NCBI GenBank assembly: GCA_963745305.1
Contig: CAVUWL010000001.1
Coordinates: forward strand, 32,278 to 96,277
DNA length: 64,000 nucleotides
Reading direction: 5' to 3'
Source of the DNA: an uncultured Solirubrobacterales bacterium
GTDB taxonomy: Bacteria > Actinomycetota > Thermoleophilia > Solirubrobacterales > 70-9
Shown here: positions 15,000 through 56,663 of the stretch, piece by piece
How the letters are laid out: each line of letters begins with the position of its first letter
Position numbering within the stretch: the stretch's first letter is position 1
Translations under genes and position numbers: made by a program
Notes under the pieces: generated by a model
What the model saw: only the letters and a program-made list of their open reading frames with translations
The model's database searches: none
Told to the model about the DNA's origin: nothing

Positions 15000-15045
15000 G
15001 GTACGTCTACGTATTTAAGAGTAAAATTTACTGGTACGTCAACGT
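15000..15045. promoter_or_regulatory. candidate operator: two GGTACGTC(T/A)ACGT boxes in an AT-rich divergent promoter region
   Basis: GGTACGTCTACGT at 15000..15012 and GGTACGTCAACGT at 15033..15045. Each contains a TACGT-nn-ACGT inverted repeat. They are separated by ATTTAAGAGTAAAATTTACT and lie 16-60 nt upstream of the TetR ORF. A TTGACA hexamer sits at 15155..15160. Confidence 0.35.
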
Positions 15046-24169: not shown

Positions 24170-24330
24170 GCGTCACCTCGTTGGCGCAAGCAGACTGAGC
24201 AGTCGCCGCTACACGCATAGCGACCCCGCGAGCCGTTGCGAGCAAGCAGTCGCGATCTGATTCCCGTGCGCCGCTCGCATGGCGAAGCATCGCGAGGGAG
24301 CCGTCGGCGGATTATGTGAAAGACCAGCGC
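24170..24330. repeat. dispersed intergenic repeat (unit 1)
   Basis: AAGCAGACTGAGCAGTCGCC resembles 35691..35712. 24233..24295 resembles 19471..19530. 24296..24330 (GTCGGCGGATTATGTGAAAGACCAGCGCTC) resembles 35826..35860. Confidence 0.65.
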
Positions 24331-24399
24331 TCCGCCAATCGCCGATCGCGATCTGATGACTCTCGGGGATTGGCGAGTGCCCCGCCGACCACGCCGCAG

Positions 24400-35626: not shown

Positions 35627-35662
35627 AAACGAGCCAACCACAAGCGCGGAGGTAAGAAATGA
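35627..35662 (+). other. predicted 3' exon of giant gene 2 (KRANHKRGGKK-stop)
   Basis: Joining 33670 to 35627 keeps the frame and gives ...RHPHKHRHH-KRANHKRGGKK*. The uninterrupted paralog tail at 61720..61765 reads RHHRRANPHRGGHK* across the same junction (GGCACCAC-AGGCGAGCCAACC vs CGCCACCAC|AAACGAGCCAACC). Confidence 0.65.
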
Positions 35663-35715
35663 TCTTCCGCCGACACAATCACGTCCGCGCTGCCAAGACT
35701 GAGCAGTCCTCGCTA

Positions 35716-35860
35716 GTCCGTCCCTCGAAACGCTCGCCCGTACTAGCGCGAAGCGCGGGTCAGGCGGTCCAAGGTTCCCAGGGCGTTGGCGCAATTCCCC
35801 GACGACAGCGGAGGCGAAGCCGAGCAGTCGTCGGTTTATGTAGATGGGCCAGCGCTCAGG
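35716..35860. repeat. dispersed intergenic repeat (unit 1)
   Basis: Related to 27441..27545 and, at its 3' end, to 24296..24330. Confidence 0.7.
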
Positions 35861-35934
35861 GCGGTCCCAGTCACGAACTGATTCTTCCTGGGGCCGCCCT
35901 GAGCGCCCCGCCGACCACCTCACACACGGCCAAG

Positions 35935-38900
35935 CGTGGCCGAATCTTCCCCCGCCGGCACCACCTACCCGCCCGAGTCGCCGCCGCTGTTTTGTCCGCC
36001 GCCGCCATCGTGGTGGCTGGCGCAGTCTGGCTGCCCGCCGCCGCCCAGGCTTCAGAGGCAGTTACCTCCTTCAAGACCACCCTCGTCGAACCGGTCCCCC
36101 CGCTCGAAAATGACGCGGCGACTGGCACTGTCGAGGCTGCGCCCACCTCCGAAAGCTTCACCCTCAAAGAACCCAGTGGATCTAAGCTCACCGTCAAAGT
36201 CTCGCCCTCGACGATCTACCGCGAGTTTGGCGCCCCCAATCCCACCCTCGGCAACGTCGGTGCCGGCGACTTCGTCGAAGTTGTCGGCCCCGGCGAAGGC
36301 ATTGAACTGACAGCGACCAAAGTCCAGATCGCCGATCCGACTGCCGGCATCGTCCAAGCTGCGCCCAGCGGCGAAAGCTTCACCATCGAAACGCTCACTG
36401 GATCCACCGACACGGTCGAAGTCTCGCCCTCGACCACCTACGTCAAGGCCAAGCCCGAACCGGGCGAAACAAGCCCAACCCTGGCTGACGTCGGGGTCGG
36501 CGACTACGTCGGGATCGTCGGCCCTCTCTCCGGGCACACCGTCACCGCGACCGGGGTGGGGATCTCCGTCCCCCAGGCCGGCGGCCACCCCGACCTCACC
36601 ACCTCCTTCGCCCTCGCCGAACCCGGCCAACCCGAAGCCGCCCAGAACGTCATCTTCAACGCCCCCACCGGCGTCTTCGGCAACCCCCGCGCGATCACCC
36701 AGTGCCCCACCTCCGAATTCGCCCTCGACGCAGTGCCCCCCCGACTCCCAGGCCGGCCTGATCACCCTCCACGCCAACTACGCAGGCAACCCCGACTACC
36801 TCCTCGGCACCGCCCCGATCTTCTCGATCGTCCCCTCCGAAGGGGAAACCGCCCGCTTCGCCTTCGTCGTCCCCGTCCTCGACATCCCGATCGCGATCCC
36901 CGTTCAGGTCCGCACCACCGCCGACTACGGCCTCCGCTTCACCGTCAAAGACATCACCCAGCTCACCCCCCTCGCCTCCGCCAGGATGACCTTCTGGGGC
37001 TTCCCCGCCGAATCGAACCCACACGCTTCGAACGCTTCCCCAAAGGGACCCCGGGGAACCCCACCGGCTGCCCCGGAGAAGAAGGCACCGCCTGCCTCGC
37101 AAAGGCCCACCGATGCCAGCATCTTCCCCCAGCCGCTCACCGACAACCCCACCACCTGCACCGGGCGCCAGCTTACCGCCACCCTCGAAGTCGAAACCTA
37201 CGCCGACCCCATCCATCACCCGGCGACCGAAGCCACCTACCCCACGATCGAAGGCTGCGAAAACGAGGTCTTCAACCCCGTCCTCCAGGCCTCCCCGACC
37301 ACCAACCAGACCGACTCCGCCTCGGGCTTGAACGTCGACCTCAAATCCCCCCAGTTCCTCACCTACGCCTCCGAGCCCTCCGAGATCCGCTCCGCCACCG
37401 TCACCCTGCCCGAAGGCTTCACCATCAACCCCGACGCCGCCGACGGCCAGACCGAATGCACCGAATCGCAGGCAAACTTCAGCTCACGAAGGCCCCGCCG
37501 AATGCCCCGACACCGCCAAGATCGGCACCTTCTCGATCGGCACCCCCGCCCTCCCCGAACGCCTCGAAGGCTCCGTCTATCATCGGCGAACCCAAGCCCG
37601 GCGACCAGTACCGGCTCTTCATGACCGCCTCTGGCTTCGGCATGAACATCAAGCTCGTCGGCTCGGTCATTCCCAATCCGAAGACCGGCCAGCTCATCGC
37701 CGAATTCCCCAACCTTCCCCAGGCTCCCTTCGAAGACTTCCAGCTCCACCTCTTCTCCGGCGAACGCGCCCTCATGGCCACCCCGACCGCCTGCACGATC
37801 TACCCCGTCGAGCGCCGAGTTCTACCCCTGGAACGCCACCCTCGCCGAACAGACCTCCAGCCAGATCTTCAGCCTCGAATCGGGTCCCCACGGCTCCCAG
37901 TGCCCGGGCCAGGTCCGCCCCTTCATCCCAACCCTCGAAGCCGGCACCTCCAACGCCACCGCCGGCGCCTTCTCCAACTTCGCCCTCAAGCTGAACCGCG
38001 AAGACGGCGACCAGGACCTCGGCCATATCAACTTCACCATGCCCCCGGGCCTCACCGCCAACCTGCACGGCGTCACCTACTGCTCCGACGCGGCGATCGC
38101 CCAGCCGCGGCGAACACTCCGGGCCGCACCGAGCAGGCCGACCCAAGCTGCCCGGCCTCTAGCGAAATCGGCACCTCAAACGTCGCCGCCGGCCCCGGCA
38201 CCCACCCCTTCCACGCCACCGGCAAGATCTACTTGGCCGGCCCCTTCCAGGGCGCCCCGCTCAGCCTCGTGGTGGTCACCCCTGCCTTGGCCGGCCCCTA
38301 TGACTACGGCACCGTCGTCGTCCGCGTCGCCCTCCACATCGACCCCCTCGACGCCCACGTCATCGCCGACTCCCAGGCGGTCCCCGAGATCATCGGCGGC
38401 ATCCCGCTGCGCATCCGCTCGATCCAGGTCAACATCAATAAGCCGAACTTCATGATCAACCCGACCAACTGCTCCGAATTTCACACCACCTCCGAAGGGG
38501 TCGGGGACCAGGGCACAGCGGTCAGCTTCACCTCCCCCTTCATCGCGGTCAACTGCGACACCCTGCCCTTTGCGCCGAAGATGTCGATCACCCAGCTCGG
38601 CGGTCACAAGGCCACCGCTCGCAGCAAGGACCCCAGCCTCGCGATCGAACTCAATACCACGAGCGGGCGATGCCAACATCAAATCGCTCACCGTCACCCT
38701 GCCCAAAGCCTTCGAGATCGACCAGCGCCACCTCGGCAACATCTGCGACCGGGCAGAACTCGCCTCGGACCAGTGCGCCGGCCGCCAGCCGATCGGCGAA
38801 GCGACCACCAACACGCCGCTGCTCGAAGCCCCCCTCAAGGGCCCTGTCTATGCGGTCTCGGGCTTCGGCGACTCTTGCCCCACCTCGCCTTCATCCTCGC

Positions 38901-39214
38901 CGGCCAGGTCACCCTGATGCCCGAGGCCGAATCCTCCTCGGTTCAACACGGCCGCCTGAAAACCGTCGTCCCGGTCATCCCCGACGCCCCGATCGGCCAC
39001 TTCCGCTTCACCCTCTTCGGCGGCTCCCAGGGCTACCTCTCAAACACCCAGAGCCTCTGCAGCGCTCCGACCGCTCTCCACGATCGAATTCAACGCCCAA
39101 AACGGCAAGAAGCTGACCCAACAGGTAAAGACCAAGACCGCGTGTAAGTACGAAGTCGAAGAGATCAAAGCACGGCACCAAGCGTCGTCGTCGCTAGTAC
39201 CTCGGGAGCCTTGA
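35935..39214 (+). pseudogene. QAGGHPD-motif secreted protein, type B with DUF5666-like N-terminal repeats (unit 1), heavily frameshifted
   Basis: Signal-peptide-like ARVAAAVLSAAAIVVAGAVWLPAAAQA. Three repeats of the type GTVEAAPTSESFTLKEPSGSKLTVKVSPSTIY...GDFVEVVG. PQAGGHPDLTTSF (36574..36594). VFGNPRAITQC. First shift at 36725-36735 (GACGCAGTGCCCCCCC vs AATGAATGCCCACCC in the paralog). Later blocks lie in ORFs 36986.., 37xxx, 38039.., 38570... True end ...STIEFNAQNGKKLTQQVKTKTACKYEVEEIKARHQASSSLVPREP at TGA 39212..39214. Start codon not resolved. Confidence 0.75.
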
Positions 39215-43002: not shown

Positions 43003-44286
43003 CTACCGACCTCGACTGCGCCCTCGTCCTCCGCCGTTGGCCACCGCGCAGGACTCCTCGACTCCGAGGAATGGGGCAAGTGTGATGTAGGTAAGAACCG
43101 GGGCGATCTGCGGCAGGCCCTCGGGCCCGGAGTCTCGCACCTGTCGATAGACCAGCTCATATGCCGCCCCGCCGATCGCCTCAGCGGCAATCGGCTCGGT
43201 CTTCGGAGCCCGTTCATAGCCTGGATTCAAGAAAACGAAGAGGGATTCGAGAAGGCTGTCCCGACGCTCCAGCGCCCTCGTCGTTCCGCTCAGGATCTCG
43301 ACCAGGGCGATCCGGGCGAAAGCCGGGTGGGCGGCGAGGAAGTCGAGCATCGCCTCAAAAGAGACCCGCACCGCGGCTGGCCACTCCTTTGCCCGTCGGT
43401 AGGCGGGCAGGGTCACGGCCAGCATCTGCGCCTGACCCGCGTCCAGCGCCGCCACGAAGACGTCCTCCTTATCGTCGAAATGCTCATAAAAGGTGCTGAG
43501 CGAGGCGGAGGCTCGCTCAACGATCTCTGCAATCGTCGTCGCCGCGTAGCCGCGCTCGGCGATTGCCTCGGTCGCCGCCGAGACGATTCGCTCCGCGGGT
43601 TTCTTGGAGCGATATATCCCAGCCTCAGGGTCATGCCCCTGCCTGACCCTCCGTTTCAGCTCTCTGGGGGGTGGTTCATAGCCGAGACTCCACCGCGCCA
43701 GCGGCCCGGCCAGGCTGCTCAGCTCCTCCTCCTTACCGCGCCGCAAACGTGTGTAGATCACCTTGCGCAGCCCCCCGACTATTGCCTGCACCAGCTCCGC
43801 TGGCATCGTTGGCCCAGCCTCTCGCGTGTCGAAGGCCTGCTGGTAAAGGGCCTCAAAGCCGGCTACGGTCTGATCCATCAAGGCCACGGCGTCTGACCCC
43901 GCGCTGAAGGACTCCACAAAGCACATTCGCGCCGCGGCTGGCTGAGCGACGATCTGCTCCATGAAGGCCGCCAGCGCCGATCCCCTCCCGTCATAGCGGG
44001 CCGAGACAGCCCTGGAGGTTCGCCGCAGGATCTCCTCCATCGTCGCCACGAAGCACTCCTGCCTGTCGGCAAACTGCTGATAGAACGCCGTTCTTGAGAC
44101 TCCCGACAGCGCGACTATGTCGGCCACGGTGGTCGCCGCGTAGCCCTGATCGGCCACCGTGGCCACCATTGCGGCAAATAGCCGCTCGCGTTGGCTGCGC
44201 ACCACCTCCTCGCGCGGAACCCCCGGTCCTGGGCGAATCTTGCGGTCGCGCAGCTCCTCTGCGTTGCCCCAGGGAGTGATGACCAT
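43003..44286 (-). CDS. double-domain (tandem-fused) TetR-family regulator, unit 2
   Basis: RERLFAAMVATVADQGYAATTVADIVALSGVSRTAFYQQF and AERIVSAATEAIAERGYAATTIAEIVERASASLSTFYEHF. Collinear with 13626..14984. Confidence 0.85.
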   Translation of the reverse strand: MVITPWGNAEELRDRKIRPGPGVPREEVVRSQRERLFAAMVATVADQGYAATTVADIVALSGVSRTAFYQQFADRQECFVATMEEILRRTSRAVSARYDGRGSALAAFMEQIVAQPAAARMCFVESFSAGSDAVALMDQTVAGFEALYQQAFDTREAGPTMPAELVQAIVGGLRKVIYTRLRRGKEEELSSLAGPLARWSLGYEPPPRELKRRVRQGHDPEAGIYRSKKPAERIVSAATEAIAERGYAATTIAEIVERASASLSTFYEHFDDKEDVFVAALDAGQAQMLAVTLPAYRRAKEWPAAVRVSFEAMLDFLAAHPAFARIALVEILSGTTRALERRDSLLESLFVFLNPGYERAPKTEPIAAEAIGGAAYELVYRQVRDSGPEGLPQIAPVLTYITLAPFLGVEESCAVANGGGRGRSRGR

Positions 44287-44861
44287 CTCTTGAACCCTAC
44301 CCAGGCCAGCTCAGCTCATCTTGCCCCCTCGGGCGCCACTCGCGTGGGTAAGGCCCTGTTTAGCCCTGCAGAATCGCGACATATTTCCGCATCCAAAGCT
44401 CGGATCGCGTGTTTCGATCCATATGAAATCCGGCTTAGGCACCTCTATTGCGGCCCAGCGCTTGACATCGCCGTAAGGATATGTTTTTCTCTTGGGTGCA
44501 GACTGAGGCAGCGGATTTGGGAACGGTCAAGTCTCCCGTGGCGGTTCGAGCTGGGCTCGACGCACCGTCAGGGCCGCAGGGCGCGCCAGGCGGAGGAACA
44601 AGGCATAGGAGGGCCGGTGGCAATCACCTGTAAAGACCATTTATTGCAATGTTGCCTCGAGAGCGCCGCTCACCGCGGACCCATCCTTTTCGTGCAGTGG
44701 AGCTCTGGAGATGCCGCACCCGCAGCCCCGCCCTCTGAATTCGCGCCGCGCCGCAACGTTTGCTTGCCTAACCCTCAATTCGGCGCTCGTCTCTTCCCTG
44801 ACAGACACCGCTCAGCTAACAGTGCGGGCGGCCCCCGTCCTGTCCGTGGCATGGGTGGTGG

Positions 44862-47297
44862 ATGACCAGGGATCGGAAATCGATCGGTGGAGAGCAGCTG
44901 AGAGACGCCACGCCAGGCGCCAGCTCCGATCGCCCAACCACCTGCATCGTTGAGAGTCAAAGACCGGATGCCGCGGGTCGGCCTCTCCACCGGGGTATCC
45001 ATACCCCGTTCCCTCCCGCTGTCGGCGTGGTCCTCTCTTTCATCTCAGCTCTCGCGGCGCTGATGGCCCTCGCCGCCGCCCCCGCGTTCGCGTCCGGAAC
45101 CGAAACCCTCAAGGTCTCCATCTCAGGGAGCGGTACCGGCACGGTCAGCGGAGCCGGCATCGAATGCGGCAATGGCGCCGAAACCTGCGAAGCACAGTTC
45201 GCCGCCAAATCCGTCATCACACTCACCGCTACCCCAACCGAACGCTCAACCTTCGCTCGTTGGTCCGGCTGCACAGAAGTGCCAAGCCCGACCAAGTGCA
45301 GGGTCAGAATTGCCGCAGGGGTTCCGACTGAAATCGGCGCAGAATTCTCCGCCATCCCCCAGGAGACGCTCGCAGTTGTCAACCCCGGCGCCGGGCTGGG
45401 CGGCGGCCGCGTTGTCGGCACCACTCCCGGACGCGAATTCAGCGAAATCGAATGCGGTAACGAACGCGAAGGCTGCCAGGCCGAATACAACCAGGCAGCC
45501 GTCATCACCCTCACCGCGACCCCAACCGAACGCTCAACCTTCAGCGGCTGGGAAGCCGGCGACTGCAAATCCGAAAGCGGCCCCGGCAACGACGAATGCA
45601 AAGTCGAAATGACCAAAGCCGAGACCGTCAAAGCCGAATTCGTCCCGATCCCCCAGAAGACCCTCTCCGTCGCCGCCCAAGGCGCCGGCCAGGGCACCCT
45701 CACCGCTTCTCCTGGAGGCGAATTCGCCTCGATCGAATGTGGCAACGGCGCCACCGCCTGCGAAGCGCAGTACAACCAGGGCACCACTCTCGTCCTCACC
45801 GCTCGCTCTTCAACCCACAGCAAGTTCGTTGCCTGGACCGGCTGCGAAGCGCAACCCAGCGAAACCGAATGCGAAGTGACGCTGAGCGCCACCAGGGCCA
45901 TCACCGCCGAATTCCTCCCTATCCCCCAGCAGCCTCTCGAACTCTCCGTCACCGGGCCCGGTGAAGTGACCAGCTCCCCGCCGGGCATCGCCTGCACCTC
46001 GACCGGCGAAACCTGCAGCGAACACTTCGACTCCGAAGGCTCCGAAGGCAGGGTCACGCTCTTCGCTTCGCCCCCTGCCGACCACCACGTCGTCTGGAGC
46101 GGCTGCGAAATCTCGAGCGGAACCGAATGCACGGTGACGATGAGCTCCGCCCGATCGGTAACCGCCCAATTTCTCCCCACTCTGCAAACGGTGCTCGTCA
46201 CCCGCATCGGCGCCGGCGAAATCACCAGCTCCCCATCCGGCATAGCCTGCGACGAAGACCTCTGCAGCGCAGACTTTCAGGAAGGAGCCACCGTCGTCCT
46301 CACTGCCCACCCCGCCGCCCACAACCGTCTCGGTGCCTGGGGAGTCGGTGAGTGCAAAGAAGAACCGAGTCCCACCGAATGCGAAATCGAAATCGGCGCC
46401 TCCTTCTCGATCGTCGCGGCCGAATTCGCTCCCATTTCGCACACCTTTGCCGTCGCGGTCAGCGGTGGAGGCTCGGTGAGCGCTAGCGCCGGCCCGATCG
46501 CCGGCTGCGCTCACGGTGGCGGCGTCTGCGCGGGAGAATACGATGAGGGTTCAACGCTTGTTCTTACCGCGTCGCCCTTTTCCAACAGCACCCTTCCCAC
46601 CTGGAGCGGCTGCACACCGAAGCCCAATCCCGCCGAATGTGAGGTCACGATCGGCTCTTCGGGCGAAACGATCCATGCCGATTTTCCGCCCAACTCCCAC
46701 ACCCTCACTGTAGAACCCTTCGGCTCCGGCTCGATTAGTGCCGATAGCGGCACGATCTCCGACTGCTCCGAAGCCGGCGGCACCTGCGCCGGCTCCTATA
46801 TCGAAGCAGCCACCCTCACTCTGATCGCAACTCCCGGCCCCCATCAGGCCGTCGCCTGGCACGGCTGCACCCACACCGAAGAGGACAGTTGTCAGGTTGA
46901 AATCGGCGCCTCTTCCTCCTCCGTCAAAGCCAGCTTCGCACAGATCACCCATGCTCTCACAGTCACGAGGGTCGGCTCGGGGCAGGGTTCGGTCACCTGC
47001 AACGGCGCCACCTGCGCCTCCAGCTACCCCGAAGGTACCACCCTGACCCTGACTGCCTCCCCGGCCGCCGGCTCGGCCTTCGCAGGCTGGAGTGGGGGAG
47101 GGTGCTCGGGAACCGGAGCCTGCCATCTCACCTTCGAAGCCGACACCACTGTCACCGCGACCTTCAACGCCAACACCGCGCCGCCTATCGAAGAAGAAAA
47201 GAAGCCGCCGCCGCTCAAATGTCGCAACGGCTTCGTCAAGAAGAATGGCCGCTGCGTCCGCAAGTCCAAGCCTCGTCATCACAAGAAGAAGCACTAG
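44862..47297 (+). CDS. secreted InlB-B-repeat protein (about eight repeats) with Cys-hairpin basic tail, intact (unit 2)
   Basis: Signal-like VVLSFISALAALMALAAAPAFA (GTG 45027 is an alternative start). Repeats of G.G.V......I.CG.....C.A.Y..G..V.LTA.P...S.F.GW.G..C......ECKV....A..V.A.F. Tail PPLKCRNGFVKKNGRCVRKSKPRHHKKKH. Confidence 0.8.
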   Translation: MTRDRKSIGGEQLRDATPGASSDRPTTCIVESQRPDAAGRPLHRGIHTPFPPAVGVVLSFISALAALMALAAAPAFASGTETLKVSISGSGTGTVSGAGIECGNGAETCEAQFAAKSVITLTATPTERSTFARWSGCTEVPSPTKCRVRIAAGVPTEIGAEFSAIPQETLAVVNPGAGLGGGRVVGTTPGREFSEIECGNEREGCQAEYNQAAVITLTATPTERSTFSGWEAGDCKSESGPGNDECKVEMTKAETVKAEFVPIPQKTLSVAAQGAGQGTLTASPGGEFASIECGNGATACEAQYNQGTTLVLTARSSTHSKFVAWTGCEAQPSETECEVTLSATRAITAEFLPIPQQPLELSVTGPGEVTSSPPGIACTSTGETCSEHFDSEGSEGRVTLFASPPADHHVVWSGCEISSGTECTVTMSSARSVTAQFLPTLQTVLVTRIGAGEITSSPSGIACDEDLCSADFQEGATVVLTAHPAAHNRLGAWGVGECKEEPSPTECEIEIGASFSIVAAEFAPISHTFAVAVSGGGSVSASAGPIAGCAHGGGVCAGEYDEGSTLVLTASPFSNSTLPTWSGCTPKPNPAECEVTIGSSGETIHADFPPNSHTLTVEPFGSGSISADSGTISDCSEAGGTCAGSYIEAATLTLIATPGPHQAVAWHGCTHTEEDSCQVEIGASSSSVKASFAQITHALTVTRVGSGQGSVTCNGATCASSYPEGTTLTLTASPAAGSAFAGWSGGGCSGTGACHLTFEADTTVTATFNANTAPPIEEEKKPPPLKCRNGFVKKNGRCVRKSKPRHHKKKH

Positions 47298-47394: not shown

Positions 47395-50300
47395 ATGTCC
47401 CGTTCCGGGCGTTTCCTCTGCGCCGCTGCGATCGCGGTGTCTGCGGCGTTCTGGTTGCTCCCCTCGGTTGCCCAGGCCGTTCCGGCACGTAACTTCGACA
47501 CCCAGCTCACCGGCTTGACGCCCCCGACCGCCCCGGTGCAGGGCCCCTTCAGGACTCCCTTCGGCGTCGCGATCGGAGCTGACGACAACCTCTGGGTTGT
47601 CGACGAAGGCCGTGGCGCGATCCCTGAGTTCGACCCCCTCGGTGGCTACCTCTCCCAGGTCCCCGACTCCGCCGGCCGCCGCCTGGCCGTCGATCGTTCC
47701 AGCGGTGATATCTACGCCGTTAGTGGAGCCAACGGTGCAAACGCGATCGGGGTATTCGAAAGCAACGGCACCTTTCTCCGCCACATCGCATTCGGTCGAG
47801 AAGAGTGTGGCGAAATCGCGGTGGCCGTCGACAACTCCGGCGGCGCCGGCGGTCCCGGCGAAGGCGAACAGGGCCGGCTCTACCTCACCTATAACTGCGG
47901 TATCCGCGGCGTCCAAGCCCTCGATCCCGATGGAAACCCCGTCGACTTCTCCGGCTCCGCCGGCTATATCTTCGGTAACGAAATCACCGGTACGCCCGCC
48001 GGCGAATTCGAAAGCGCCAACAACGCACTCGCTACCGATGCCCACGGCGACGTATACCTCTTCGGCCGCGCCGGGAGCGAAGAACCCGCCGGCTATGAGT
48101 TTGCACCCAGCGGCACTTTCATTCGGGCCTTCACGGGTGCCGAAGTTCCTGGTGGCCTTTCCCGCGACATCGAAGGTATCGCCGTCGATCCCACCAACGG
48201 GAATGTCCTTTTTGCAGCAGCAGATTACGCCGAAAGCGCCATCTATGAATTCAACGAAACCGGAAAATTCCTCCAAAAGATCAGCGGCACCTCCGAAGGC
48301 AATACCTTCGCTGGTCTCAGTGGCGGCATCGCCGTCAGCTCGACCGGCTACCTCTACGCAGCCGACGCCGCCGCAGGGGTCATCGACGTCTTCCTTCCAC
48401 CAGGCCTCGGCCCCTTGCCCGAAGCTAGGACCGAAGCCGCCACCGAAATCGAACGCAATTCTGCGACCCTCCATGCCAAAGCCAGTTTGGCCGGCGGCAG
48501 CCATATCACGAAATGCCAGTTCGAATACGCCATTGCCGCCGCCTACAGGCCCTCGGCGGAACCCGAACCCTATACCGATACCGCACCCTGCCTTAACAAT
48601 GCGGGCGAAACAGTCGGTACCGGCGCAGCGCCGATCGAAGGCGCCACCGAACTACACGCACCCATCCAAGGAATCCACGCTGGCGACACCTTCCACTTTC
48701 GCATCTCACTCACCAATGATGATGATGTCGCCCGCTACGGCTCCGACCGTACCTTCGAAACACCTCCCGCCGTCACCGCTGTCAAGACCCTTCCTCCGAC
48801 CGAGATCACCAACAAGTCCGCACTCCTGCACGGCTCCTTTACCGGCGAAGGTATCCCCACCACCTACCACTTCGAATACACAACGGAAGGCGATTTCGAA
48901 GACCACGGCTACGGAACCTCGATCAAGCTGCCCGTCCCCGATGCCGGCGCTCCGGAAGGGGCTGGTGAAGTTTTCGTCCCCCCGGTTGAAGCCGCCGGTG
49001 TCGTCCCCGACACCCCCTACGTCTACCGGCTTGTCGCCACCAACAAATATGGGACGACCATCGGCGAAAATCAGTCCTTTACCACCTTCCAGCCACCTAG
49101 CATCGAAGGATTCTTCACCTCCCACCTCAGCGCCACCTCCGCCGACCTTGAAGCCAAGATCAACCCCCAGGGCTTTGCCACTGAATGTCGCTTCGAATAC
49201 GGCCCCACGACTTCCTATGGAGCCATTGCGCCTTGCCCAGAAGCGCTAGGGAGGACACAGCGGCCTGCCGATCGTGGTCCCAATCTCCGGCCTCCAGTCG
49301 GGCGTCACCTACCACTTCCGCGTCATCGTCGAAAACAAATGGGGAGCCGTCACCTCCGAAGATCAGAGCTTCGAATTCTTCCCCCCGGCTTGCCCCAATC
49401 CGCCATCCGCAACCAGACCGGCTCCGCATACCTACCCGACTGCCGCGCCTATGAGCTCGTCTCCCCGCCGAACGCCAACGGCACTCTGCTCTACGCCGGT
49501 GGGCCAAACACGGGGAACGCCACAAACCCATCCCGCCTCTCCTTCACCGGGCTCTACGGCTCCATTCCTGGCGCCAAGACCATCAACTCCGCCGGTGACC
49601 TCTACGTCGCTACCCGCACCGACACCGGTTGGGAATCCAAATATATCGGCCTCCCCGGCAGTCAGGCCGGCTGCATGGGTGGGCCACCCAACTATCCGCT
49701 CTCCCACGTCGTCTCCCCGAACCCGCCGTATCTCACCAACTCGGTCCCTCGGATTCCTCCATGAAAGGTTCCTCATCTGGAACGACGGTACTCCCGGTAG
49801 CATGCTTCAACGGGACTTCGCCCTTCGCCGATACCAACTGGGAACTGGACTCGCCGTCCAATGCTCCCTACATGTACAGCGCCGAAGGCGGCCTGATCCA
49901 GCGCCTGCCGACCGACTTGCCGGGGGGAACGGGAGCGGTGGAAGCCAGCACTCAAGTGCCCCTATCCACACAGGAGACCGTGACGCCGCCCTGCACCAGC
50001 GAAGTCGCGGCCTCCGGTGATCTCAGCCACCTGGTCTTCTCTTCCAACACCACCTCCTTCTCCGAACCAGGACAGCCGCCTGGCCTTACCAAAGCCCCCG
50101 GCTCCGCTTATGACAACGACATTGCTTCCGGCACGGTCGAGTTGATCTCGCTGGGGCCCAATGGCGAAAACATTCCCCAGGACCCCGTCTTCGCCAATGC
50201 TCCTCCCCAACCCAACAACGGAAGCAGAATCGAAGTGCCCGGCGGCGCCGAAGAGTTCCTCCGCTTCCCGGCCATCTCCACCGACGGTTCCCACATCCTC

Positions 50301-51693
50301 ATTTCGACCGCGACCGCCGGCACCAGCATTTGCAACAACGGGGGTGAAATCAGATTCGGGCTCTGTCCTCGATTTACAGCCACGCCCCGTCCATCTCTAC
50401 ATGCGCGTTAAGGATCTCATCACCTACGAAATCGCCGAAGGCCACACAAACCCGTCGCCATTCATCGGCATGACTCCCGATGGCTCAAAGGTGTTCTTTA
50501 GCTCCGAAGAACACCTGACCACTGAAGACCCCGGGCATGTCGGCGCCTCCCTCTACATGTGGTCTCAGAAGGGCGAAGAAGAACACCATCCACTTACGCT
50601 GATCTCAAAGGGCGAAAGCGAAGAATCCGGCGCATCCGGGAACACCGGCGAATGCCACCCGGCACGCCGTAGTGGGGCGCCCTGGACCACCAACTGCAGC
50701 GCCGTGCCGATCTCGACTTACCTTTACTCCTTCCTTACGGGTGGGGCTGGCGGCAACGGCTTTTCGGACTCCGCGATCTCCGCCGACGGTGATATCTACT
50801 TCTACTCTCCAGAGCAGCTCGAAGGCACCGAGGGTGTTCCTGGGCAGGAGAACCTCTACGACTACCGCGACGGCAAGGCACGCTATGTGACCACGCTCAA
50901 GCCCGAAGAAAAGTGCACCAAAACCGCAGTCCTCGGCGTTGACACGGTCTGCACCACCGAAGCGGTGCTGCGCATCGACGTCAGTCCCGACGACAGCCAT
51001 ATGGCCTTCGTCACCGCCTCTCGGTTGAGCTCCTATGACAACGCCGGCCATCTTGAGATGTACTCCTACACCCCTGCCTCGGGGGCGCTCGTTTGCGATT
51101 CCTGTAACCCCGACGGCCAGCCCGCGACCGCCGATGTCCAGGCCAGCCAGGACGGGCTGTTCATGACTGACGATGGCCGCGCATTTTTCTCCACAACCGA
51201 ATCGCTGGTACCCCAGGACACAAACGAAGGCCCTGATGTCTATGAGTTCGTCGACGGCCGCCCGCAGCTGATCTCTCCCGGCACTGGGACGGCCACTGCT
51301 GGAAGCGCCGTCTTTAGCTTCGCCGCCTCAAACGAGTTGCCTGGCCTGGTTGGCGTCAGCGCCGACGGCACCGACGTCTACTTCGGCACCTTCGACAGCC
51401 TCGTCTCCGGCGATCACAACGGAAACTTCTTTCGCTTCTACGACGCCCGCACCGATGGCGGTTTTCGTCAGGCCGCGCCGGTCCAACCCTGTGCCGCTGC
51501 AGAAGAATGCCACGGTCCCGGCAGAGAAGAACCCGGACTTCCGACCCAAGGCACAGGATCCGCCCTGACCGGAGGTAACGCCACCTTGCGAAGCCACCTA
51601 AGGCACCGCACCAAGAGGCACAAGCGCGTGCGCCATGAACGCAGCAAGAAGCACCGAGCCAAGCAACACCGGAAAGGATCGGTGCGCCCTTGA
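47395..51693 (+). pseudogene. giant secreted beta-propeller protein 1 (unit 2), at least four frameshifts; interrupted by group II intron
   Basis: MSRSGRFLCAAAIAVSAAFWLLPSVAQA. NHL-like blades (DNLWVVDEGRGAIPEF, GDIYAVSG, GDVYLFGRAG). FN3-like modules (CQFEYAIAAAY, TFHFRISLTND, YHFEYTTEGDF, PYVYRLVATNKYG, CRFEYGPTTSYG, VTYHFRVIVENKWG). ACPNP-AIRNQTGSAYLPDCRAYELVSP. PD40-like blades (STDGSHILIST, TPDGSKVFFSSEEHL, SADGTDVYFGTFD). AAEECHGPG. Path: frame of ORF 47092.. to about 49250, ORF 49274.. to about 49400, back to about 49760, ORF 49629.. to about 50370, then ORF 50161... Exon 1 ends at 51627. Confidence 0.8.
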
Positions 51694-53583
51694 TGCGGCG
51701 CTGCACAGAAGATGGAGGTAGGCCCTCCGTGGTCGCCTTGCAGGAGGCGATCACAAACCACCCCGAGGTGCGGCGGTCAAGAGCCGCTCGTGCTGAGCGT
51801 CGTGGGAAAAGGCGCACCAACGAGTGCGTCAGGTATGACCCGATGAAGGCGAAGACGACTGAACCGCAGGAAACGTGTCGAAAGCTTTTAGACGACATCA
51901 AAACCAGGCTCGGCGCTTATGCCTGGGATGAGCCTGGGAGTCACCTGTCTACTGACCAGGCGGTGTCCGGCATATATGCGGCGCCAGCGCGGGTCAGGCT
52001 CCTGTGCGGAACATGGGAACCTGTCGTCTCGCGGGAAGCCGGCTCATGGTCATCTGACCTCCGGCCGGCTCTCCCAGGGAAGGCCCCAAGCGGCAGAAAC
52101 CGCAAGGGACCACATCCTGATGCGAGGCACAGGGGCGGACTGCCCGGTAGTAGTGATGAAGGCTCTGTAATGGGGCTGGAGCGAAGCGGGCGGGCCATCC
52201 AGGCGAAGTTGACGGTCAACCACGAAGTGTGTGGGAGGACCCGGTGACCGAGCCAAAGTCAAAGGTCAAGAAGTCGTTTTGCATCGACAAGCGGGTGGTC
52301 TGGGAGGCCTGGAAGCAAGTCAGGGCCAACCAGGGCGCTCCAGGAGTCGATGAGGAATCGGTTGCGGAGTTCGAGAGGAACCTCAAGGGGAACCTATACG
52401 TGCTGTGGAACCGGATGTCCTCGGGTGCCTACATGCCACCGCCTGTGAAGGCGGTGCAGATACCGAAGAAGGATGGGCGAGGGTCAAGAACCCTCGGTGT
52501 GCCCACCGTCGCCGACAGGGTCGCGCAGACGGTCGCCAAGCTGTATTTGGAACCAGAGGTGGAGCCGATGTTCCACCCCGACTCCTACGGCTATCGACCG
52601 AACCGCTCGGCCCTTGATGCGGTGGGGACGTGCCGGGAGCGCTGTTGGAAGTCGGACTGGTTGATTGATTGTGATCTCCGCTCCTTCTTCGACCTCGTTG
52701 ACCATCAGCTCATCCTCAAAGCGGTAGCCGCCCACACCAAGGAGCGGTGGGTACTCCTCTACGTCGAGCGCTGGCTGAAGGCCCCGCTGGACAATGGGGA
52801 CGGCAACCTGGAAGCGCGTGATCGTGGCACTCCACAGGGTTCTGCGATCTCCCCGGTGCTCGCCAACATCTATCTCCACTATGCGTTCGATGCCTGGATG
52901 GCCAGGGAGTTCCCGGCCGTCCCCTTCGAGCGCTACGCAGACGATGTTGTCGTACACACCAAAAGTGAGCGCCAGGCACGGGTTGTGCTCGGCGAGATCG
53001 AGAAGCGGATGGCGGACTGTCACCTGGAGCTAAACCAGGAAAAGAGCCGCATCGTCTACTGCAAGGACTCGAATCGCAAAGGCTCTCACGAGCACGAGCG
53101 CTTCGACTTCCTCGGGTACACGTTTCGCCACCGACAAGCCCGTAACGGGCGGGGTGAGCTGTTCCGCAGCTTCTCCCCAGCAGTCAGTGACGAAGCCGCG
53201 AAAGCGATACGCCGGACGATCCGGACTTGGAGGATTCACCTATGGAGCGGGACGCCCCTTACGGACATCGCACGAGAGCAAAGTGCGATCGTGCGAGGCT
53301 GGATCAACTACTACGGGCATTTCTACCCGACCGAGTTGAAGCAGTCCCTCAAGCGCATCGACGAGTACTTGGTGCGCTGGGCGATGCGGAAGTACAAACG
53401 ACTGAAAGGCCGCCGCGAGCGGGCCTGGGAGTTCCTGGCGGACGTGTCCTCACGCGAACCAGAGCTCTTTGCTCACTGGCGGTTGGTACGACCCTACGAC
53501 CGGATGGTGGGAGCCGTATGACGGGAGACTGTCACGTGCGGTTCTGCGAGAGCCGGGAGGCGCAATCCTCCCTGCCACTCACC
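51628..53583 (+). mobile_element. group II intron, copy 2 (1956 nt)
   Basis: GTGCGCC start. Domain V GAGCCGTATGACGGGAGACTGTCACGTGCGGTTC at 53511..53544. Ends ...CCTCCCTGCCACTCACC at 53583. About nine-tenths identical to copy 1 by eye. Confidence 0.85.
52244..53521 (+). CDS. group II intron reverse transcriptase/maturase
   Basis: Same blocks as 34287..35564 (YADD, GWINYYGH). ORF track starts at GTG 52229. GTG 52244 corresponds to the copy-1 start. Confidence 0.9.
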   Translation: MTEPKSKVKKSFCIDKRVVWEAWKQVRANQGAPGVDEESVAEFERNLKGNLYVLWNRMSSGAYMPPPVKAVQIPKKDGRGSRTLGVPTVADRVAQTVAKLYLEPEVEPMFHPDSYGYRPNRSALDAVGTCRERCWKSDWLIDCDLRSFFDLVDHQLILKAVAAHTKERWVLLYVERWLKAPLDNGDGNLEARDRGTPQGSAISPVLANIYLHYAFDAWMAREFPAVPFERYADDVVVHTKSERQARVVLGEIEKRMADCHLELNQEKSRIVYCKDSNRKGSHEHERFDFLGYTFRHRQARNGRGELFRSFSPAVSDEAAKAIRRTIRTWRIHLWSGTPLTDIAREQSAIVRGWINYYGHFYPTELKQSLKRIDEYLVRWAMRKYKRLKGRRERAWEFLADVSSREPELFAHWRLVRPYDRMVGAV

Positions 53584-53640
53584 AAGAGCAGGCGCCATCC
53601 ACGCCGAGCCGCTCATCACGATGGCAGGGCTGCGCGATGA
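53584..53640 (+). other. predicted 3' exon of giant gene 1 (KSRRHPRRAAHHDGRAAR-stop)
   Basis: Joining 51627 to 53584 gives ...TKRHKR-KSRRHPRRAAHHDGRAAR*. The uninterrupted unit-1 paralog reads KHHKR-KSKRHNHRAARQPEGRK* (CACAAGCGC-AAGAGCAAGCGCC at about 24052..24073 vs CACAAGCGC|AAGAGCAGGCGCC). Confidence 0.65.
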
Positions 53641-53708: not shown

Positions 53709-56663
53709 ATGATCTCGCCTCTTCGCCTCTTCGCCGCAGCGGTCTCAGGATTCCAGCCGACTGAGGATCTCGAGGCGCGTGGCTCCGCGCGCCGGCTGAG
53801 CATCGCCGTGTGCGTGACCGCGGTGGTGGTGGGCTTGCTGGTGCCCGCAGTTGCCCAAGCGGTACCGATCTTTCGCTTTACCACCCTGCCCTCCACCACA
53901 CAGGCGGGCGGTCATCCCGACGTCGCCTTTTCATATGCGGTCGGCAACCGTGCGCAGAATCCCAGTCCTTGCGGCTGTGATGACCCTAAGAACATCTCCG
54001 TTCACCTCCCCACTGGTCTGATCGGCAATCCCCATGCCACCCCGCAGTGCACCATCGCCGCATTTGCCTCAGAAGAATGCCCTACCGACTCTCAGGTCGG
54101 GATCACCCAGGTCCACGTAAGCACCGGCACCTGCATCGAACTGGAAGAATGTACGATCAGCTTTCTGACCCCCGTCTTCGCCCTTGTCGCTCCTCCCGAA
54201 GACGCGGGCCTCCTCGGTTTTAAAACCGGCATTTTCGCCAGTCCGATACTCACAGTCATAAGCTCCCGTACCGACAGCGACTACGGTATCAACGCGACGG
54301 TCGAAAATACCCCACATTTCTTCCCGCTGTTCAGCTTCAAAGAGGATATCTGGGGTATTCCCTCCGAACATAGCCACGACGACCTCAGATTTGGCTTCCG
54401 TCAGTTGCCGACAATCGGAGGGACGGAAATCTGTACGACCGGCGGTGAACCGAGTACCTTCGACCCCAACACGATGGCCACCTGGTGTCCGTTCCGCGGA
54501 GAACACAAAGCGGTTGGCACAAACACCGAATTCGGTGGACCCGGAGGTCCCGTTTCCTCCGACAGCCCCCACGTCCCTTTCTGGCAAAACCCAACCACCT
54601 GCGGTGAATCTTCGCTCGTTGCCTCGCTCGACGTCCTCAGCTACACAGAAGAATTTACCCAGGCGGACTCCTCCTACCCTGCGACCACCGACTGCGATCA
54701 GCTCACCTTTAACCCCAGCCAATCGGTGGTCCCCACGACATCGGCTGCAGATTCACCCTCCGGCGCCGAACTGCATCTCAGCGTTCCCCAGTTCGAGAGC
54801 CCCAGCGTACCGTCACCCTCCGAGCTCCGCGACGCCACCATCACCTTTCCCGAAGGCTTCTCCCTCGCGCCTAACGTGGCCAACGGCAAGACCACTTGTT
54901 CCGAAGCGCAGGCGCGTTTTGGCACGACCGAAGAAGCCCAATGCCCCGAAGACGCGAAGGTCGGTACGATCTCCATTGATACCCCCGTCCTGCCCGGCCC
55001 CCTCCTCGGCGCCGTCTACCTTGGTGAACCGCAACCGGGCAACCGCTTCCGACTATTCCTTGTCCTCGACGGCTTCGGACTCCACATCAAGCTGTCTGGC
55101 AAGGTCATCCCCGACCCGGTCACGGGGCAGATTCGAATCGCCTTCCAGAACCTCCCTCAAACCCCCTTTGAATCCTTCAACGTGCACATTTTCGGCTCCG
55201 AGCGGGGCGCCCTCGACACGCCGAGCCAGTGCGGCTCCTATGAAGTAAGCAGCGTCTTCACTCCGTGGGACGCCGCTCTGCCAGAACAGACCTCCCGCCA
55301 GTTCTTCAAAGTGACCGAAGGGCCAAACGGCAGCTCCTGCCCAGACGGCGCGCGCCCCTTCAGCCCCGGCTTGAAGTCTGCCTCTTCCGCCAACACCGCC
55401 GCCGCCCATACCTCATTCTCGATTGATCTGACCAGAAACGACGGCGAACAGAATCTGAAGGCGCTGAACGTCACCACACCACCGGGCTTCTCTGCGACCC
55501 TTAAGGGCGTTTCTTATTGCCCGGACGCCGCGATCGCAGCCGCCGCCCTGGAAAGCCATACAGGTCTCGCTGAGGAAGCCAGCCCCAGCTGTCCTGCATC
55601 GAGTTTGATCGGCGAATCGAGCGCCGGAACCGGAGCCGGCGATCACCCGCTTTTCCTCCCCGGCAGGGTCTACCTTGCCGGTCCTTACAAGGGTGCGCCG
55701 CTAAGCCTCGCGATCATTACTCCGGCAGTCTCCGGAGGCTATGACCTCGGCAACGTCGTGGTCCGCGCTGCGCTTCATGTCAATCCCGAAACCGCCCAGA
55801 TCACCGCCATCTCTGACCCCCTGCCCCAGATCTTCCAGGGTATCCCCCTCCGCCTGCGCGCGATTCTCGTCAACCTCAACCGTCCGGGTTTCGCCTTAAA
55901 CCCGACCGATTGCAACCCCCTCGCCGTGACCGCTCAGGTCTTCGGCACAGAAGGCGCCGTTTCCACCCCCTCCGAGCACTTCCAGGTCGCCAACTGTGTC
56001 TCCCTCTCCTTTGCCCCCAGGCTTGCGATGGGATTCTCGGGCTCCACCAAACGCGCCGGCAACCCGTCTCTTCGCACCGAACTCACCTATCCAAGCAGCG
56101 GCCCCTACGCCAACGTCTCTCGCGTCGCCGTCACCCTGCCGCCAACCGAGATTGTCGACAACGCCCACATCAAGGACCCTTGCACCAAGGACCAGTTCTT
56201 CGAAGGCAAGGTCCCCGGCGAAAAGTGCCCCCCAGGTTCCGACATCGGCTTCGCAAAGGCAAGCACGCCCCTCCTTGAAAAGCCCCTCGAAGGCCCGGTC
56301 TACCTGCGGACCGGAGGCGGCCACAAGCTCCCCGACATCGTCGCCGCCTTAAACGGTCAGATAGACATCGCCCTCGACGGCCACGTGGACGCCGTTCACT
56401 CTGGCATTCGTACCACCTTCGAAACAGTCCCCGACGCCCCCGTTTCCCACTTCACATTGAGCCTCGACGGCGGACGTAAGGGTCTCCTCCAAAACGACAC
56501 GAACCTCTGCACCAACACCCTTCGCGCGGTCGCTGACATCGCCGCCCAAAACGGCAAGGCGGCTAATCAGAACCCCGTTCTCAGCACTCCTTGCGCCAAG
56601 AAACACCAAAAGCGCGCCAGGCTTGGACGAGCTTTGGGCGTCAACCGGGCAGGTGGGCGTTGA
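53709..56663 (+). CDS. QAGGHPD-motif secreted protein, type A (unit 2), intact
   Basis: Signal-like LSIAVCVTAVVVGLLVPAVAQA. FRFTTLPSTTQAGGHPDVAF (53901..53921). LIGNPHATPQCTIAAFASEECPTDSQVG. WQNPTTCGESSL. FPEGFSLAPNVANGKTTCSEAQARFG. VYLGEPQPGNRFRLFLVLDGFGLHIKLSGKVIPDPVTGQIRIAFQNLPQTPFESFNVHIFGSERGALDTP. GIPLRLRAILVNLNRPGFALNPTDC. Tail TPCAKKHQKRARLGRALGVNRAGGR. Start ATG 53709 is the first in-frame ATG before the hydrophobic segment. Confidence 0.8.
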   Translation: MISPLRLFAAAVSGFQPTEDLEARGSARRLSIAVCVTAVVVGLLVPAVAQAVPIFRFTTLPSTTQAGGHPDVAFSYAVGNRAQNPSPCGCDDPKNISVHLPTGLIGNPHATPQCTIAAFASEECPTDSQVGITQVHVSTGTCIELEECTISFLTPVFALVAPPEDAGLLGFKTGIFASPILTVISSRTDSDYGINATVENTPHFFPLFSFKEDIWGIPSEHSHDDLRFGFRQLPTIGGTEICTTGGEPSTFDPNTMATWCPFRGEHKAVGTNTEFGGPGGPVSSDSPHVPFWQNPTTCGESSLVASLDVLSYTEEFTQADSSYPATTDCDQLTFNPSQSVVPTTSAADSPSGAELHLSVPQFESPSVPSPSELRDATITFPEGFSLAPNVANGKTTCSEAQARFGTTEEAQCPEDAKVGTISIDTPVLPGPLLGAVYLGEPQPGNRFRLFLVLDGFGLHIKLSGKVIPDPVTGQIRIAFQNLPQTPFESFNVHIFGSERGALDTPSQCGSYEVSSVFTPWDAALPEQTSRQFFKVTEGPNGSSCPDGARPFSPGLKSASSANTAAAHTSFSIDLTRNDGEQNLKALNVTTPPGFSATLKGVSYCPDAAIAAAALESHTGLAEEASPSCPASSLIGESSAGTGAGDHPLFLPGRVYLAGPYKGAPLSLAIITPAVSGGYDLGNVVVRAALHVNPETAQITAISDPLPQIFQGIPLRLRAILVNLNRPGFALNPTDCNPLAVTAQVFGTEGAVSTPSEHFQVANCVSLSFAPRLAMGFSGSTKRAGNPSLRTELTYPSSGPYANVSRVAVTLPPTEIVDNAHIKDPCTKDQFFEGKVPGEKCPPGSDIGFAKASTPLLEKPLEGPVYLRTGGGHKLPDIVAALNGQIDIALDGHVDAVHSGIRTTFETVPDAPVSHFTLSLDGGRKGLLQNDTNLCTNTLRAVADIAAQNGKAANQNPVLSTPCAKKHQKRARLGRALGVNRAGGR

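Follow-up and report, generated by a model that had tools for sequence, protein, structure and literature searches.

The question raised by the locus described here is why proteins of quite different architecture, encoded side by side, should end in the same way, and what such an ending might do. The locus lies in a 64,000-nucleotide stretch of DNA, hereafter the window, from an uncultured Solirubrobacterales bacterium (GenBank assembly GCA_963745305.1, contig CAVUWL010000001.1, positions 32,278 to 96,277 of the forward strand; G+C ~65%). A reading of these letters made without database searches (the sequence-only reading) had drawn attention to a Lys/Arg/His-rich C-terminal tail, with a short Cys-bracketed motif on it, in several proteins of a cassette, and had taken it as the hallmark of a dedicated sorting or anchoring signal. 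The analysis bears out that a common C-terminal tag is carried by co-clustered, signal-peptide-bearing proteins of different architecture, and that this tag is genuine and selectively maintained. From its sequence and occurrence, it appears to be a lineage-specific module of the Solirubrobacterales/Thermoleophilia, previously uncatalogued, in which a short cationic hairpin between two cysteines is followed by a polybasic tail. Its most likely role, which we hold with about even confidence, would be to hold proteins exported via Sec at the cell surface through electrostatic, non-covalent contacts.

The module in the window

The module is displayed in full at the C-terminus of an 811-residue secreted protein (44862-47297, + strand), which has a signal peptide (…ALAALMALAAAPAFA/SG) and divergent InlB B-repeats (Pfam Flg_new_2, 5 stretches, E 7.6e-39); an identical protein, P0001, is present in a public protein collection. 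The end of this protein (47200-47297) reads PPLKCRNGFVKKNGRCVRKSKPRHHKKKH and then stops. Between the last B-repeat and the hairpin lies a Pro/Glu/Lys linker, APPIEEEKKPPPLK (47179-47219, + strand), which is predicted to be disordered, with a predicted local distance difference test score (pLDDT) of ~52 in AlphaFold2 (AF2). There follows the Cys-bracketed cationic hairpin, CRNGFVKKNGRCV (47220-47258, + strand), which is matched both by a regular expression (regex) and by a degenerate DNA pattern, and in which AF2 places the strands FVKK and RCVR round an NG turn. The polybasic tail, RKSKPRHHKKKH (47259-47297, + strand), runs from there to the stop codon, as seen in the translation and in a ranking of open reading frame (ORF) ends.

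A six-frame search of the window with the regex C-x3-[FY]VKK-x-G-x-C-V places this hairpin in three genes only, all on the + strand, with starts at ~33602, 47220 and 61668; a fourth match, at 5798, is out of frame and unrelated. The DNA pattern identifies the same copies (33602-33642, 47220-47260 and 61668-61708), with 0 matches in 100 dinucleotide-preserving shuffles. The two further copies belong to very large proteins, Giant 2 and Giant 2'. In Giant 2, the hairpin CKKSFVKKHGKCV and the first part of the tail, QRHPHKHRHH, form exon 1 (33602-33670, + strand; regex, DNA pattern and splice reconstruction), the tail being interrupted by an intron that is discussed below. In Giant 2', the hairpin CKKGYVKKHGSCV is followed by the tail …RHHRRANPHRGGHK and the stop (61668-61765, + strand), where the tail requires a frameshift after CV. 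The hairpin codons of the 47220 and 33602 copies differ from each other synonymously, and it follows that their likeness has been kept at the level of the protein and does not come from a recent copying of DNA; a recent DNA duplication between the B-repeat protein and Giant 2 was ruled out on these grounds.

The tails themselves stand out sharply from the rest of the window. Across 571 stop-to-stop ORF ends, the mean number of Lys and His residues in the last 25 positions is 1.2, against 9-12 in the top four, and these four (24115, 33736, 47297 and 51693) are tails which the sequence-only reading had cited. Indeed, every tail which it had named was recovered at or close to where it had been placed, by regex, ORF-end ranking or motif matches.

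Distribution across genomes

The degenerate DNA pattern, which we estimate to carry ~39 bits, was scanned against one genome per species for 185,579 prokaryotic species, where ~2 matches are expected by chance. At least 115 were obtained, of which 113 are genuine among the matches listed; the other two, in Nitrosomonas and in Candidatus Mediterraneibacter, are visibly due to chance. The genuine matches fall in at least 72 species-level metagenome-assembled genomes (MAGs), with up to six in a single genome, and their labels are Solirubrobacterales, Solirubrobacteraceae, Thermoleophilia or the coarser Actinomycetes/Actinomycetota. The carriers found, among the matches listed, are uncultured MAGs throughout.

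If the tail is a common tag then it should extend beyond this locus and be retained in orthologs, and both are seen. In addition to the scan, in L001, a locus of an unrelated assembly, a syntenic cassette has its genes in the same order as in the window; its four proteins have signal-peptide-like N-terminal segments and all end in strongly basic tails, one of which carries CRKGFVKRHGKCVKRHHHRRHH…, and the cytoplasmic TetR regulators next to them have ordinary ends with no basic tails. Furthermore, when the C-terminal 423 residues of Giant 2 were used as a HMMER query, 538 representatives were obtained at E <= 1e-30, one per 50%-identity cluster, and 130 of the best 150 of these (87%) end in a basic tail. 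A C-x10-14-C pair is present in most of the best 150; some, like Giant 1, lack a Cys pair, and in others there is a long, Arg/Lys/Ala-rich variant, C-x~45-50-C. Within this family the composition of the tail is conserved and its sequence is not; selection would appear to act on composition.

Anatomy of the module

In the genome-scan matches, the first Cys lies at a median of 32 residues from the stop (5-95% range 26-44), and within 60 residues of it in 107 of 111. Positions which the pattern leaves free are nearly invariant, namely Gly at +3 (106/110), Lys or Arg at +10 (104/110) and Lys or Arg at +13 (108/110), and such near-invariance where nothing was constrained argues for true homology of these modules. 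The consensus is (P/A/K linker)-C-[KR]-K-G-[FY]-V-K-[KR]-x-G-[KR]-C-V-[KR]-[KR]. A long form, with four extra basic residues after G-F (for example CKKGFKKKKVKGKQRCVK), aligns cleanly with the short form. The element that we propose as a family has 13-17 residues, C-[KR]-K-G-[FY]-(x0/4)-V-K-[KR]-x-G-[KR]-C-V-[KR], and is set ~25-45 residues before the stop, with a K/R(/H)-rich tail nearly free of acidic residues behind it and a signal peptide on the protein that carries it; the window copies at 47220, 33602 and 61668 belong to it, as do the 113 genome-scan matches.

The linker that precedes the hairpin contains 18% Pro, 14% Ala and 10% Lys over the 113 modules. The tail after the second Cys contains 31% Lys, 21% Arg and 6% His (58% K+R+H) and less than 2% Asp and Glu, and has a median length of 20 residues and a median net charge of +9. 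The description of the tail as Lys/Arg/His-rich in the sequence-only reading is, then, general with respect to Lys and Arg, while the richness in His is specific to the sub-lineage of the window. Gly is three- to four-fold enriched in the last six residues of the tail (0.21-0.28, against 0.07-0.09 upstream), and this Gly-containing extreme C-terminus could serve for recognition or protection. In roughly every second tail, Gly stands at -3 or -4, with endings such as RGGKK (35645-35659), RGGHK (61748-61762), GRK and RHG (loci L003-L117).

No hydrophobic segment is present in the window tails, nor in the hairpin-bearing C-termini from the genome scan. For the latter, over the last 40 + tail residues, the 15-residue Kyte-Doolittle mean reaches a maximum of 1.25 (median 0.53), and the sequence-only reading was right to set these endings apart from LPXTG-, PEP-CTERM- and GlyGly-CTERM-like signals.

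AF2 predicts a β-hairpin, FVKK-NG-RCVR, with strands at residues 100-103 and 106-109 and a pLDDT of ~81 over the block, flanked by the low-confidence linker (~52) and by an unstructured tail. In the Giant family, the number of Cys residues downstream of a conserved ECHG motif (see below) is even in 212 of 214 non-redundant members (none in 16, two in 193, four in 3 and one in 2), a parity which may be read as the signature of an obligatory disulfide pair.

The domain before the linker is variously the end of a PD40-like propeller ('YDAR..GGFP…C…C.G'), an FN3-like domain ('TTYHYR…TFTT'), an InlB B-repeat or another; in other words, the module is found after at least four domain types. Pfam searches of 52 other hosts returned NHL, fn3 or PD40-type domains only, and a search of the 811-residue protein returned Flg_new_2 alone. 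The hairpin occurs in tandem in P0235 and apparently, by inspection, in P0215 and P0188. In L065, L087 and L099 a further β-rich domain of ~60 residues comes after it, with a second His/Lys tail (…KKHKHKHKGHGHKK and stop) at the end. As these last three cases illustrate, the hairpin is not necessarily terminal; the basic tail always is.

Export and gene neighbourhood

Basic tails are strongly associated with export. Signal-peptide-like N-termini, as scored by a home-made heuristic with a substantial false-positive rate, are present in 41 of 58 basic-tail ORFs and in 41 of 213 other ORFs of the same loci (odds ratio 10, p = 4e-13). A previous version of the heuristic was too loose (46 of 61 hosts against 40 of 87 controls), and the stricter version was used in its place. 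The signal peptides of the hosts are ordinary cleavable ones, in which no lipobox was seen.

A partner enzyme, on the other hand, did not come to light. The sequence-only reading had seen no processing enzyme in the window, and no sortase- or peptidase-like gene was found in its 64 kb; likewise, no enzyme family recurs within ~4-8 kb of the host genes in 113 loci of 8 kb. Around the 113 host genes, the only recurrent non-tail neighbours with a recognisable identity are TetR-like regulators. A larger neighbour cluster, made up of short ORFs, resembled antisense shadow ORFs.

A possible role in surface retention, and the alternatives

Electrostatic binding to anionic wall polymers or to extracellular DNA (eDNA) had been raised as one possibility by the sequence-only reading, and it is this possibility that the evidence favours. 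The proteins would be exported via Sec with their N-terminal signal peptides. Outside the cell, the two cysteines would form a disulfide and so staple the cationic β-hairpin, whereupon hairpin and polycationic tail would bind the polyanionic envelope by multivalent charge contacts. Candidate ligands are wall glycopolymers of the teichoic/teichuronic type, peptidoglycan-associated anions and anionic lipid head groups. The C-terminus would remain at the wall, and the spacer would let the NHL/PD40 β-propeller, FN3 or B-repeat domains project outward. Plain basic tails (as in Giant 1) and the 'TPCGKK…', 'VTGCPK-AKKK…' and PASTA+KPKKKH endings may be variants of the same strategy, and the His-rich flavour of the tails in the window would make their charge pH-dependent. 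We infer each of these steps, from export and disulfide formation through to binding and topology.

An exchange of endings is instructive with regard to the destination. The closest full-length homologs of the 811-residue protein, P0002-P0008, which match 85-94% of the query at 46-66% identity, end in PASTA followed by KPKKKH, and the same combination stands behind the last B-repeat in another protein of the window, that of unit 1. PASTA is an extracellular domain associated with peptidoglycan, so its presence as a swap at this position speaks for the cell wall as the destination. Moreover, the hairpin can be tandem or internal, which argues that it behaves as a binding module, not as a cleavage signal. 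Non-covalent retention at the wall is known from the GW modules of InlB, which act on wall teichoic acid (PMC7155027), and from CWB2, which acts on the polymer PSII (PMC4973711).

Several considerations weigh against surface retention by charge. The carriers are uncultured MAGs, and what the module does is read from its sequence and predicted structure; the heuristic for signal peptides has the false-positive rate given above; and we know of no report that identifies anionic wall polymers in Solirubrobacterales, or indeed shows that they are present. Against the membrane potential, export of a long polycationic stretch should be difficult, and the topology is assumed. Moreover, the core of the hairpin is conserved far beyond the needs of a purely electrostatic role; together with the Gly signature, this could reflect a specific partner or a processing step. 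For this reason, we keep a sorting signal as a live rival, in which the hairpin and/or the Gly terminus would be read by a dedicated enzyme (a protease, a transpeptidase or a lipid/glycan transferase), the tail removed and the protein covalently attached. Besides the very strong conservation of the hairpin core and the non-random Gly signature, such a signal would explain the many-to-one relationship, with as many as 6 or more carriers in one genome, and the strict lineage restriction, among the matches listed, which are typical of sorting-signal systems (10.1101/2023.06.07.544157). We nevertheless regard it as unlikely, since the hydrophobic segment that every described system uses to hold its substrate at the membrane (10.1101/2023.06.07.544157) is missing, the hairpin is tandem or internal in some proteins, many members of the family have the tail but no hairpin, and neither the window nor the surroundings of the hosts offer a candidate enzyme. 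These same facts, with TetR-like genes as the only recognisable neighbours to recur, give no support to reading the dedicated signal of the sequence-only reading as one that has a processing enzyme. Correspondingly, it is quite doubtful that the hairpin and the Gly-containing polybasic end form the recognition element of a Thermoleophilia sorting system which dispenses with a transmembrane (TM) helix. Were it so, such TM-helix-less sorting would be a fourth design beside the sortase, the exosortase/archaeosortase/rhombosortase and the myxosortase signals.

The polycation might instead bind polyanions outside the cell, such as extracellular DNA, matrix polysaccharides, polyphosphate, clay or humic soil surfaces, and serve in adhesion or the crosslinking of a matrix. 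The physical chemistry would be the same as in retention at the wall, the linker resembles the 'KPKAKPKAKP' repeats of histone-H1-like proteins and the carriers come from soil- or peat-type MAGs, to judge by record titles such as 'palsa_744'. However, the hosts have no other recognisable cell anchor and would diffuse away if they did not bind the wall, and it is to the wall that the PASTA swap points; we consider an external ligand somewhat unlikely as the principal one, bearing in mind that the two roles are not mutually exclusive. The predicted hairpin is also reminiscent in format of the cationic β-hairpin peptides with one disulfide, of which thanatin, arenicin and bactenecin are examples, and it could be that hairpin and tail are cleaved off as a free, disulfide-stapled antimicrobial or signalling peptide, the rest of the protein being its carrier. 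This is highly improbable given that the variable P/A/K linker has no conserved cleavage site, that many family members which keep the tail dispense with the hairpin and that it would be uneconomical to mount such a peptide on many very large structural proteins, several per genome. It is very unlikely, too, that the His-rich tails of the window are metal-binding tags for Ni, Zn or Cu. Sequences such as HKHRHH and HKHHKKHH, the presence of His in 20-30% of tails at -7 to -9 and the genes for a tyrosinase and a copper chaperone at 6466-8582 would all fit such a role. However, K and R dominate the tails, and with His at 6% of residues family-wide it cannot be a common functional requirement, by which metal binding was ruled out as the general function; furthermore, the tyrosinase genes are in a separate, mobile-element-like flank. 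That the shared endings have no function at all, and arose by low-complexity drift, gene conversion between paralogs or as a by-product of group II introns, is scarcely credible. The tails are indeed of low complexity, Giant 1/1' and Giant 2/2' are paralogs and introns do sit in tails. Set against this, the tail is kept in 87% of representatives that share at most 50% identity and in at least 72 species, the hairpin is invariant as protein while its codons vary, the Cys count is even in 212 of 214 members, the tails are strongly tied to exported proteins and there are 4 intron copies as compared with more than 100 intron-free tails.

Group II introns within tail codons

Two of the tails in the window are each interrupted by a group II intron of 1956 nt, at a codon boundary. 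The first (33671-35626, + strand) lies in the tail of Giant 2 and is recognised both by Rfam (RF01999 at 33757-33877 and RF00029 at 35552-35626, for D1-D4 and domain V/VI) and by Pfam (RVT_1 and GIIM, in a reverse transcriptase (RT)/maturase ORF at 34287-35564). The second (51628-53583, + strand), in the tail of Giant 1', was found with Rfam and by alignment to the first. The two are 92% identical over an aligned region which comprises the introns and short flanks.

In Giant 2 and Giant 1', the raw ORF ends ('VRHERSKKHRAK.HRKGSV..' and stop) are in consequence the translated 5' ends of introns and not tail, which annotators may find misleading. Removal of the introns restores …RHH/KRANHKRGGKK and stop in Giant 2, in which KRANHKRGGKK is exon 2 of the tail (35627-35662, + strand; splice reconstruction), and …HKR/KSRRHPRRAAHHDGRAAR and stop in Giant 1', in which the tail is made up of RSHLRHRTKRHKR as exon 1 (51589-51627, + strand; splice reconstruction) and KSRRHPRRAAHHDGRAAR as exon 2 (53584-53640, + strand). 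Both junctions are confirmed by uninterrupted paralogs: Giant 2' has RHH/RRAN (RHH/RRANPHRGGHK and stop) at its empty site, and Giant 1 has HKR/KSKRH, with which exon 2 of Giant 1' aligns (HKR/KSKRHNHRAA). The continuations of these tails that the sequence-only reading had given in brackets agree with the intron removal and the paralog alignment.

Four copies of this intron sub-lineage, with an RT identity of at least 70%, came to light, namely the two in the window and one each in L080 (- strand, 5' end at 7537 of the reverse strand) and L111 (- strand, 6116). Each of them lies inside basic-tail codons, in codon phase 0. In L066, a relative with 54% identity is placed between genes, after one for TetR. 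Translation that runs on in frame into any of the four introns gives a surrogate basic peptide ended by a stop (VRHERSKKHRAKHHRKGSVHS, VRHERSKKHRAKKGSVHS and VRHERKKTHKKKKK). This surrogate end persists even as the introns diverge, as in L080, with an in-frame deletion of 9 nt, and in L111, which reads VRHERKKTHKKKKK to the stop. It suggests that insertion of the intron is phenotypically buffered by a surrogate basic end, be this selected or coincidental. The sub-lineage may be specialised in homing into tail codons, with the surrogate tail and stop masking the insertion.

Other basic endings and the surrounding locus

Beyond the three hairpin copies, the window contains basic endings of other kinds. 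Giant 1 has a plain basic tail, GSHKHHKKHHKRKSKRHNHRAARQPEGRK and stop, with no Cys pair (24026-24115, + strand; ORF-end ranking). The NHL/B-repeat protein of unit 1 has the alternative ending in which PASTA (E 2.3e-8, residues 82-145 of the translation of 18912-19373; Pfam) is followed by SKPKPKKKH and the stop (19155-19376, + strand). One protein of the QAGGHPD family ends in …TPCGKKHHKRAKL (27253-27291, + strand) and a second in …TPCAKKHQKRARLGRALGVNRAGGR and stop (56586-56663, + strand), both with a TPC[AG]KKH match; in other genomes, too, members of the family have '…STPCGKK…' before a basic tail. The QAGGHPD motif stands near the N-terminal part of four window proteins (24541, 36574, 53901 and 62496); these form two sub-families, have no Pfam match and have orthologs in the same cassette position in L001, where the proteins close with '…STPCGKK…' and a basic tail. 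A third type of tail is Arg/Lys/Ala-rich, of ~45-50 residues and Cys-bracketed (…C…KRAKAMRRRAAHAKGKRAKALRKKA…KRCRAR…), this probably helical segment taking the place of the β-hairpin; it occurs in L001 (7736-10345) and in P0202, P0225, P0228, P0233, P0239, P0257 and P0260. Cys-hydrophobic-Arg-cluster ends on B-repeat homologs from other phyla (P0044, P0050 and P0064) were noticed by eye only, are not recognised by NCBIfam and were left unused.

The minor motifs to which the sequence-only reading had pointed (TPC[AG]KKH at 27253 and 56586, SKPKPKKKH ending at 19376 and four instances of C.A.[DE]ECHG) are likewise present. The last of these is found at 23927, 33494, 51490 and 61561, in the Giant proteins. 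As C-x-[AS]-[AS]-[DE]-E-C-H-G, it is almost invariant in the Giant family (nearly all 150 representatives), ~45-65 residues before the stop, where it supplies a second, small pair of cysteines (C-x5-C) with His-Gly behind them and differs from the canonical CXXCH site for heme. The proteins with these endings had been called unrelated, which is correct between the B-repeat, Giant and QAGGHPD families and incorrect within the Giant 1/1' and Giant 2/2' pairs, as these are paralogs.

A frame plot of G+C at third codon positions (GC3) indicates that the giant genes are split over several frames (19844-24115, 24316-27300, 35659-39147, 47395-51693 and 56591-61765), and these breaks may be either indel errors of the assembly or the marks of true pseudogenes. 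Because the giant genes are broken in this way, public gene calls at such loci are fragmented, and many 'proteins' of the family are C-terminal pieces of 200-400 residues.

The cassette units are headed by a divergent regulator with two TetR_N domains (13626-15014 and 43003-44310, both on the - strand), as is also the case in L001 (633-3899) and 20 other loci, which suggests that the cassettes are under small-molecule-responsive repression. The left flank of the window (1272-12941) looks like a mobile element. It contains an AAA_30 fragment, a sigma-70 region 4 protein, a RecA fragment (4483-5103, - strand), SSB (5667-6017), a copper chaperone (6466-7242, - strand), a tyrosinase (7389-8582, - strand) and two tandem large serine recombinases (8925-10925 and 10929-12941, - strand).

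Comparison with known systems

Neither Pfam (2025) nor NCBIfam (2026) contains a model for the module. Among the 120 closest C-terminal fragments, which are metagenomic and without exception annotated as 'hypothetical', none has a precomputed Pfam domain. NCBIfam release 20 gives no match at E <= 1, either for the tail-bearing proteins or for the tails in isolation, and Pfam at permissive thresholds likewise yielded nothing of use for the latter. In the full-text literature, neither the motif nor a cationic-tail anchor of Actinomycetota was found described, and a comprehensive review of surface display in monoderms mentions no cationic-tail anchor. To judge by sequence, the module would be a C-terminal surface-retention tag of an undescribed sequence family and of an atypical design, without a TM helix. 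Solirubrobacterales are abundant in soil and almost entirely uncultured, and we know of nothing on how they display proteins at their surface. A module that can be detected computationally offers a way to list the probable surface proteome of the whole order. It is also a candidate for a new domain model, for C-termini which at present have neither Pfam nor NCBIfam coverage, and, as a compact tag of ~40 residues, a candidate for use in surface display.

Known wall-binding modules provide the nearest functional parallels. GW/SH3b, LysM, CWB1, CWB2, SLH, WxL and PASTA gave no Pfam match on the C-termini that bear the module, PASTA being found only on the paralogs with the alternative ending. The GW (SH3b-like) modules of Listeria InlB and autolysins are similarly C-terminal, non-covalent and basic, and keep a Sec-secreted protein at the surface through wall teichoic acid (PMC7155027); they also act by repetition. 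However, they are folded units of ~80 residues from a different phylum, with no Cys pair and no disordered tail, and have no sequence or profile similarity in Pfam to the hairpin-tail module. PASTA (PF03793) likewise stands behind the last B-repeat and leads into a tail of the KPKKKH type, but it is an α/β domain of ~65 residues with no Cys pair, and the hairpin has no similarity to it. The arrangement C-x-x-G-[FY]-…-G-x-C-V in the module does resemble the last disulfide loop of EGF-, furin- and TIL-type domains (C-x2-G-[FY]-x4-8-G-x-C), and matches below the Pfam threshold were obtained to Furin-like_2 (E 0.035, 14.8 bits against a cut-off of 28) and TIL_2 (E 0.072, 13.3 bits against 24). EGF-type modules, though, have three or more disulfides, whereas the hairpin-tail unit has two Cys residues and one putative disulfide, is extremely cationic and continues into a disordered tail. 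A disordered polybasic C-terminal tail is also found in eukaryotic Semaphorin 3A, where it is reported to bind glycosaminoglycans at the cell surface or in the matrix (PMC8465649); this is an analogy only, the sequence and the ligand being unrelated.

The more telling comparison is with the tripartite sorting signals. Like the module, these are short C-terminal tags with a conserved motif and a basic end, borne by many secreted proteins per genome and restricted to particular lineages (10.1101/2023.06.07.544157), and the basic cluster at the extreme C-terminus is a feature that module tails share with them. The sortase, exosortase, rhombosortase and myxosortase signals, however, consist of a motif, a transmembrane helix and an Arg cluster, and the MYXO-type motif contains an invariant Cys (10.1101/2023.06.07.544157). 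In the module, there is no TM helix between motif and basic cluster; the cysteines are two and paired, in place of a single Cys of the lipidation type; and the basic region extends over 20-30 residues instead of a few Arg. Neither an LPXTG nor a PEP motif is present in translations of the tail proteins in the window. Tripartite signals, moreover, have a cognate enzyme; for the module, no candidate was found in the window and no enzyme family recurs near the host genes in the 113 loci. Should such a partner exist, it would amount to a new sorting principle. In either case, C-terminal tags that many proteins of one genome have in common need not follow the design of motif, TM helix and Arg cluster.

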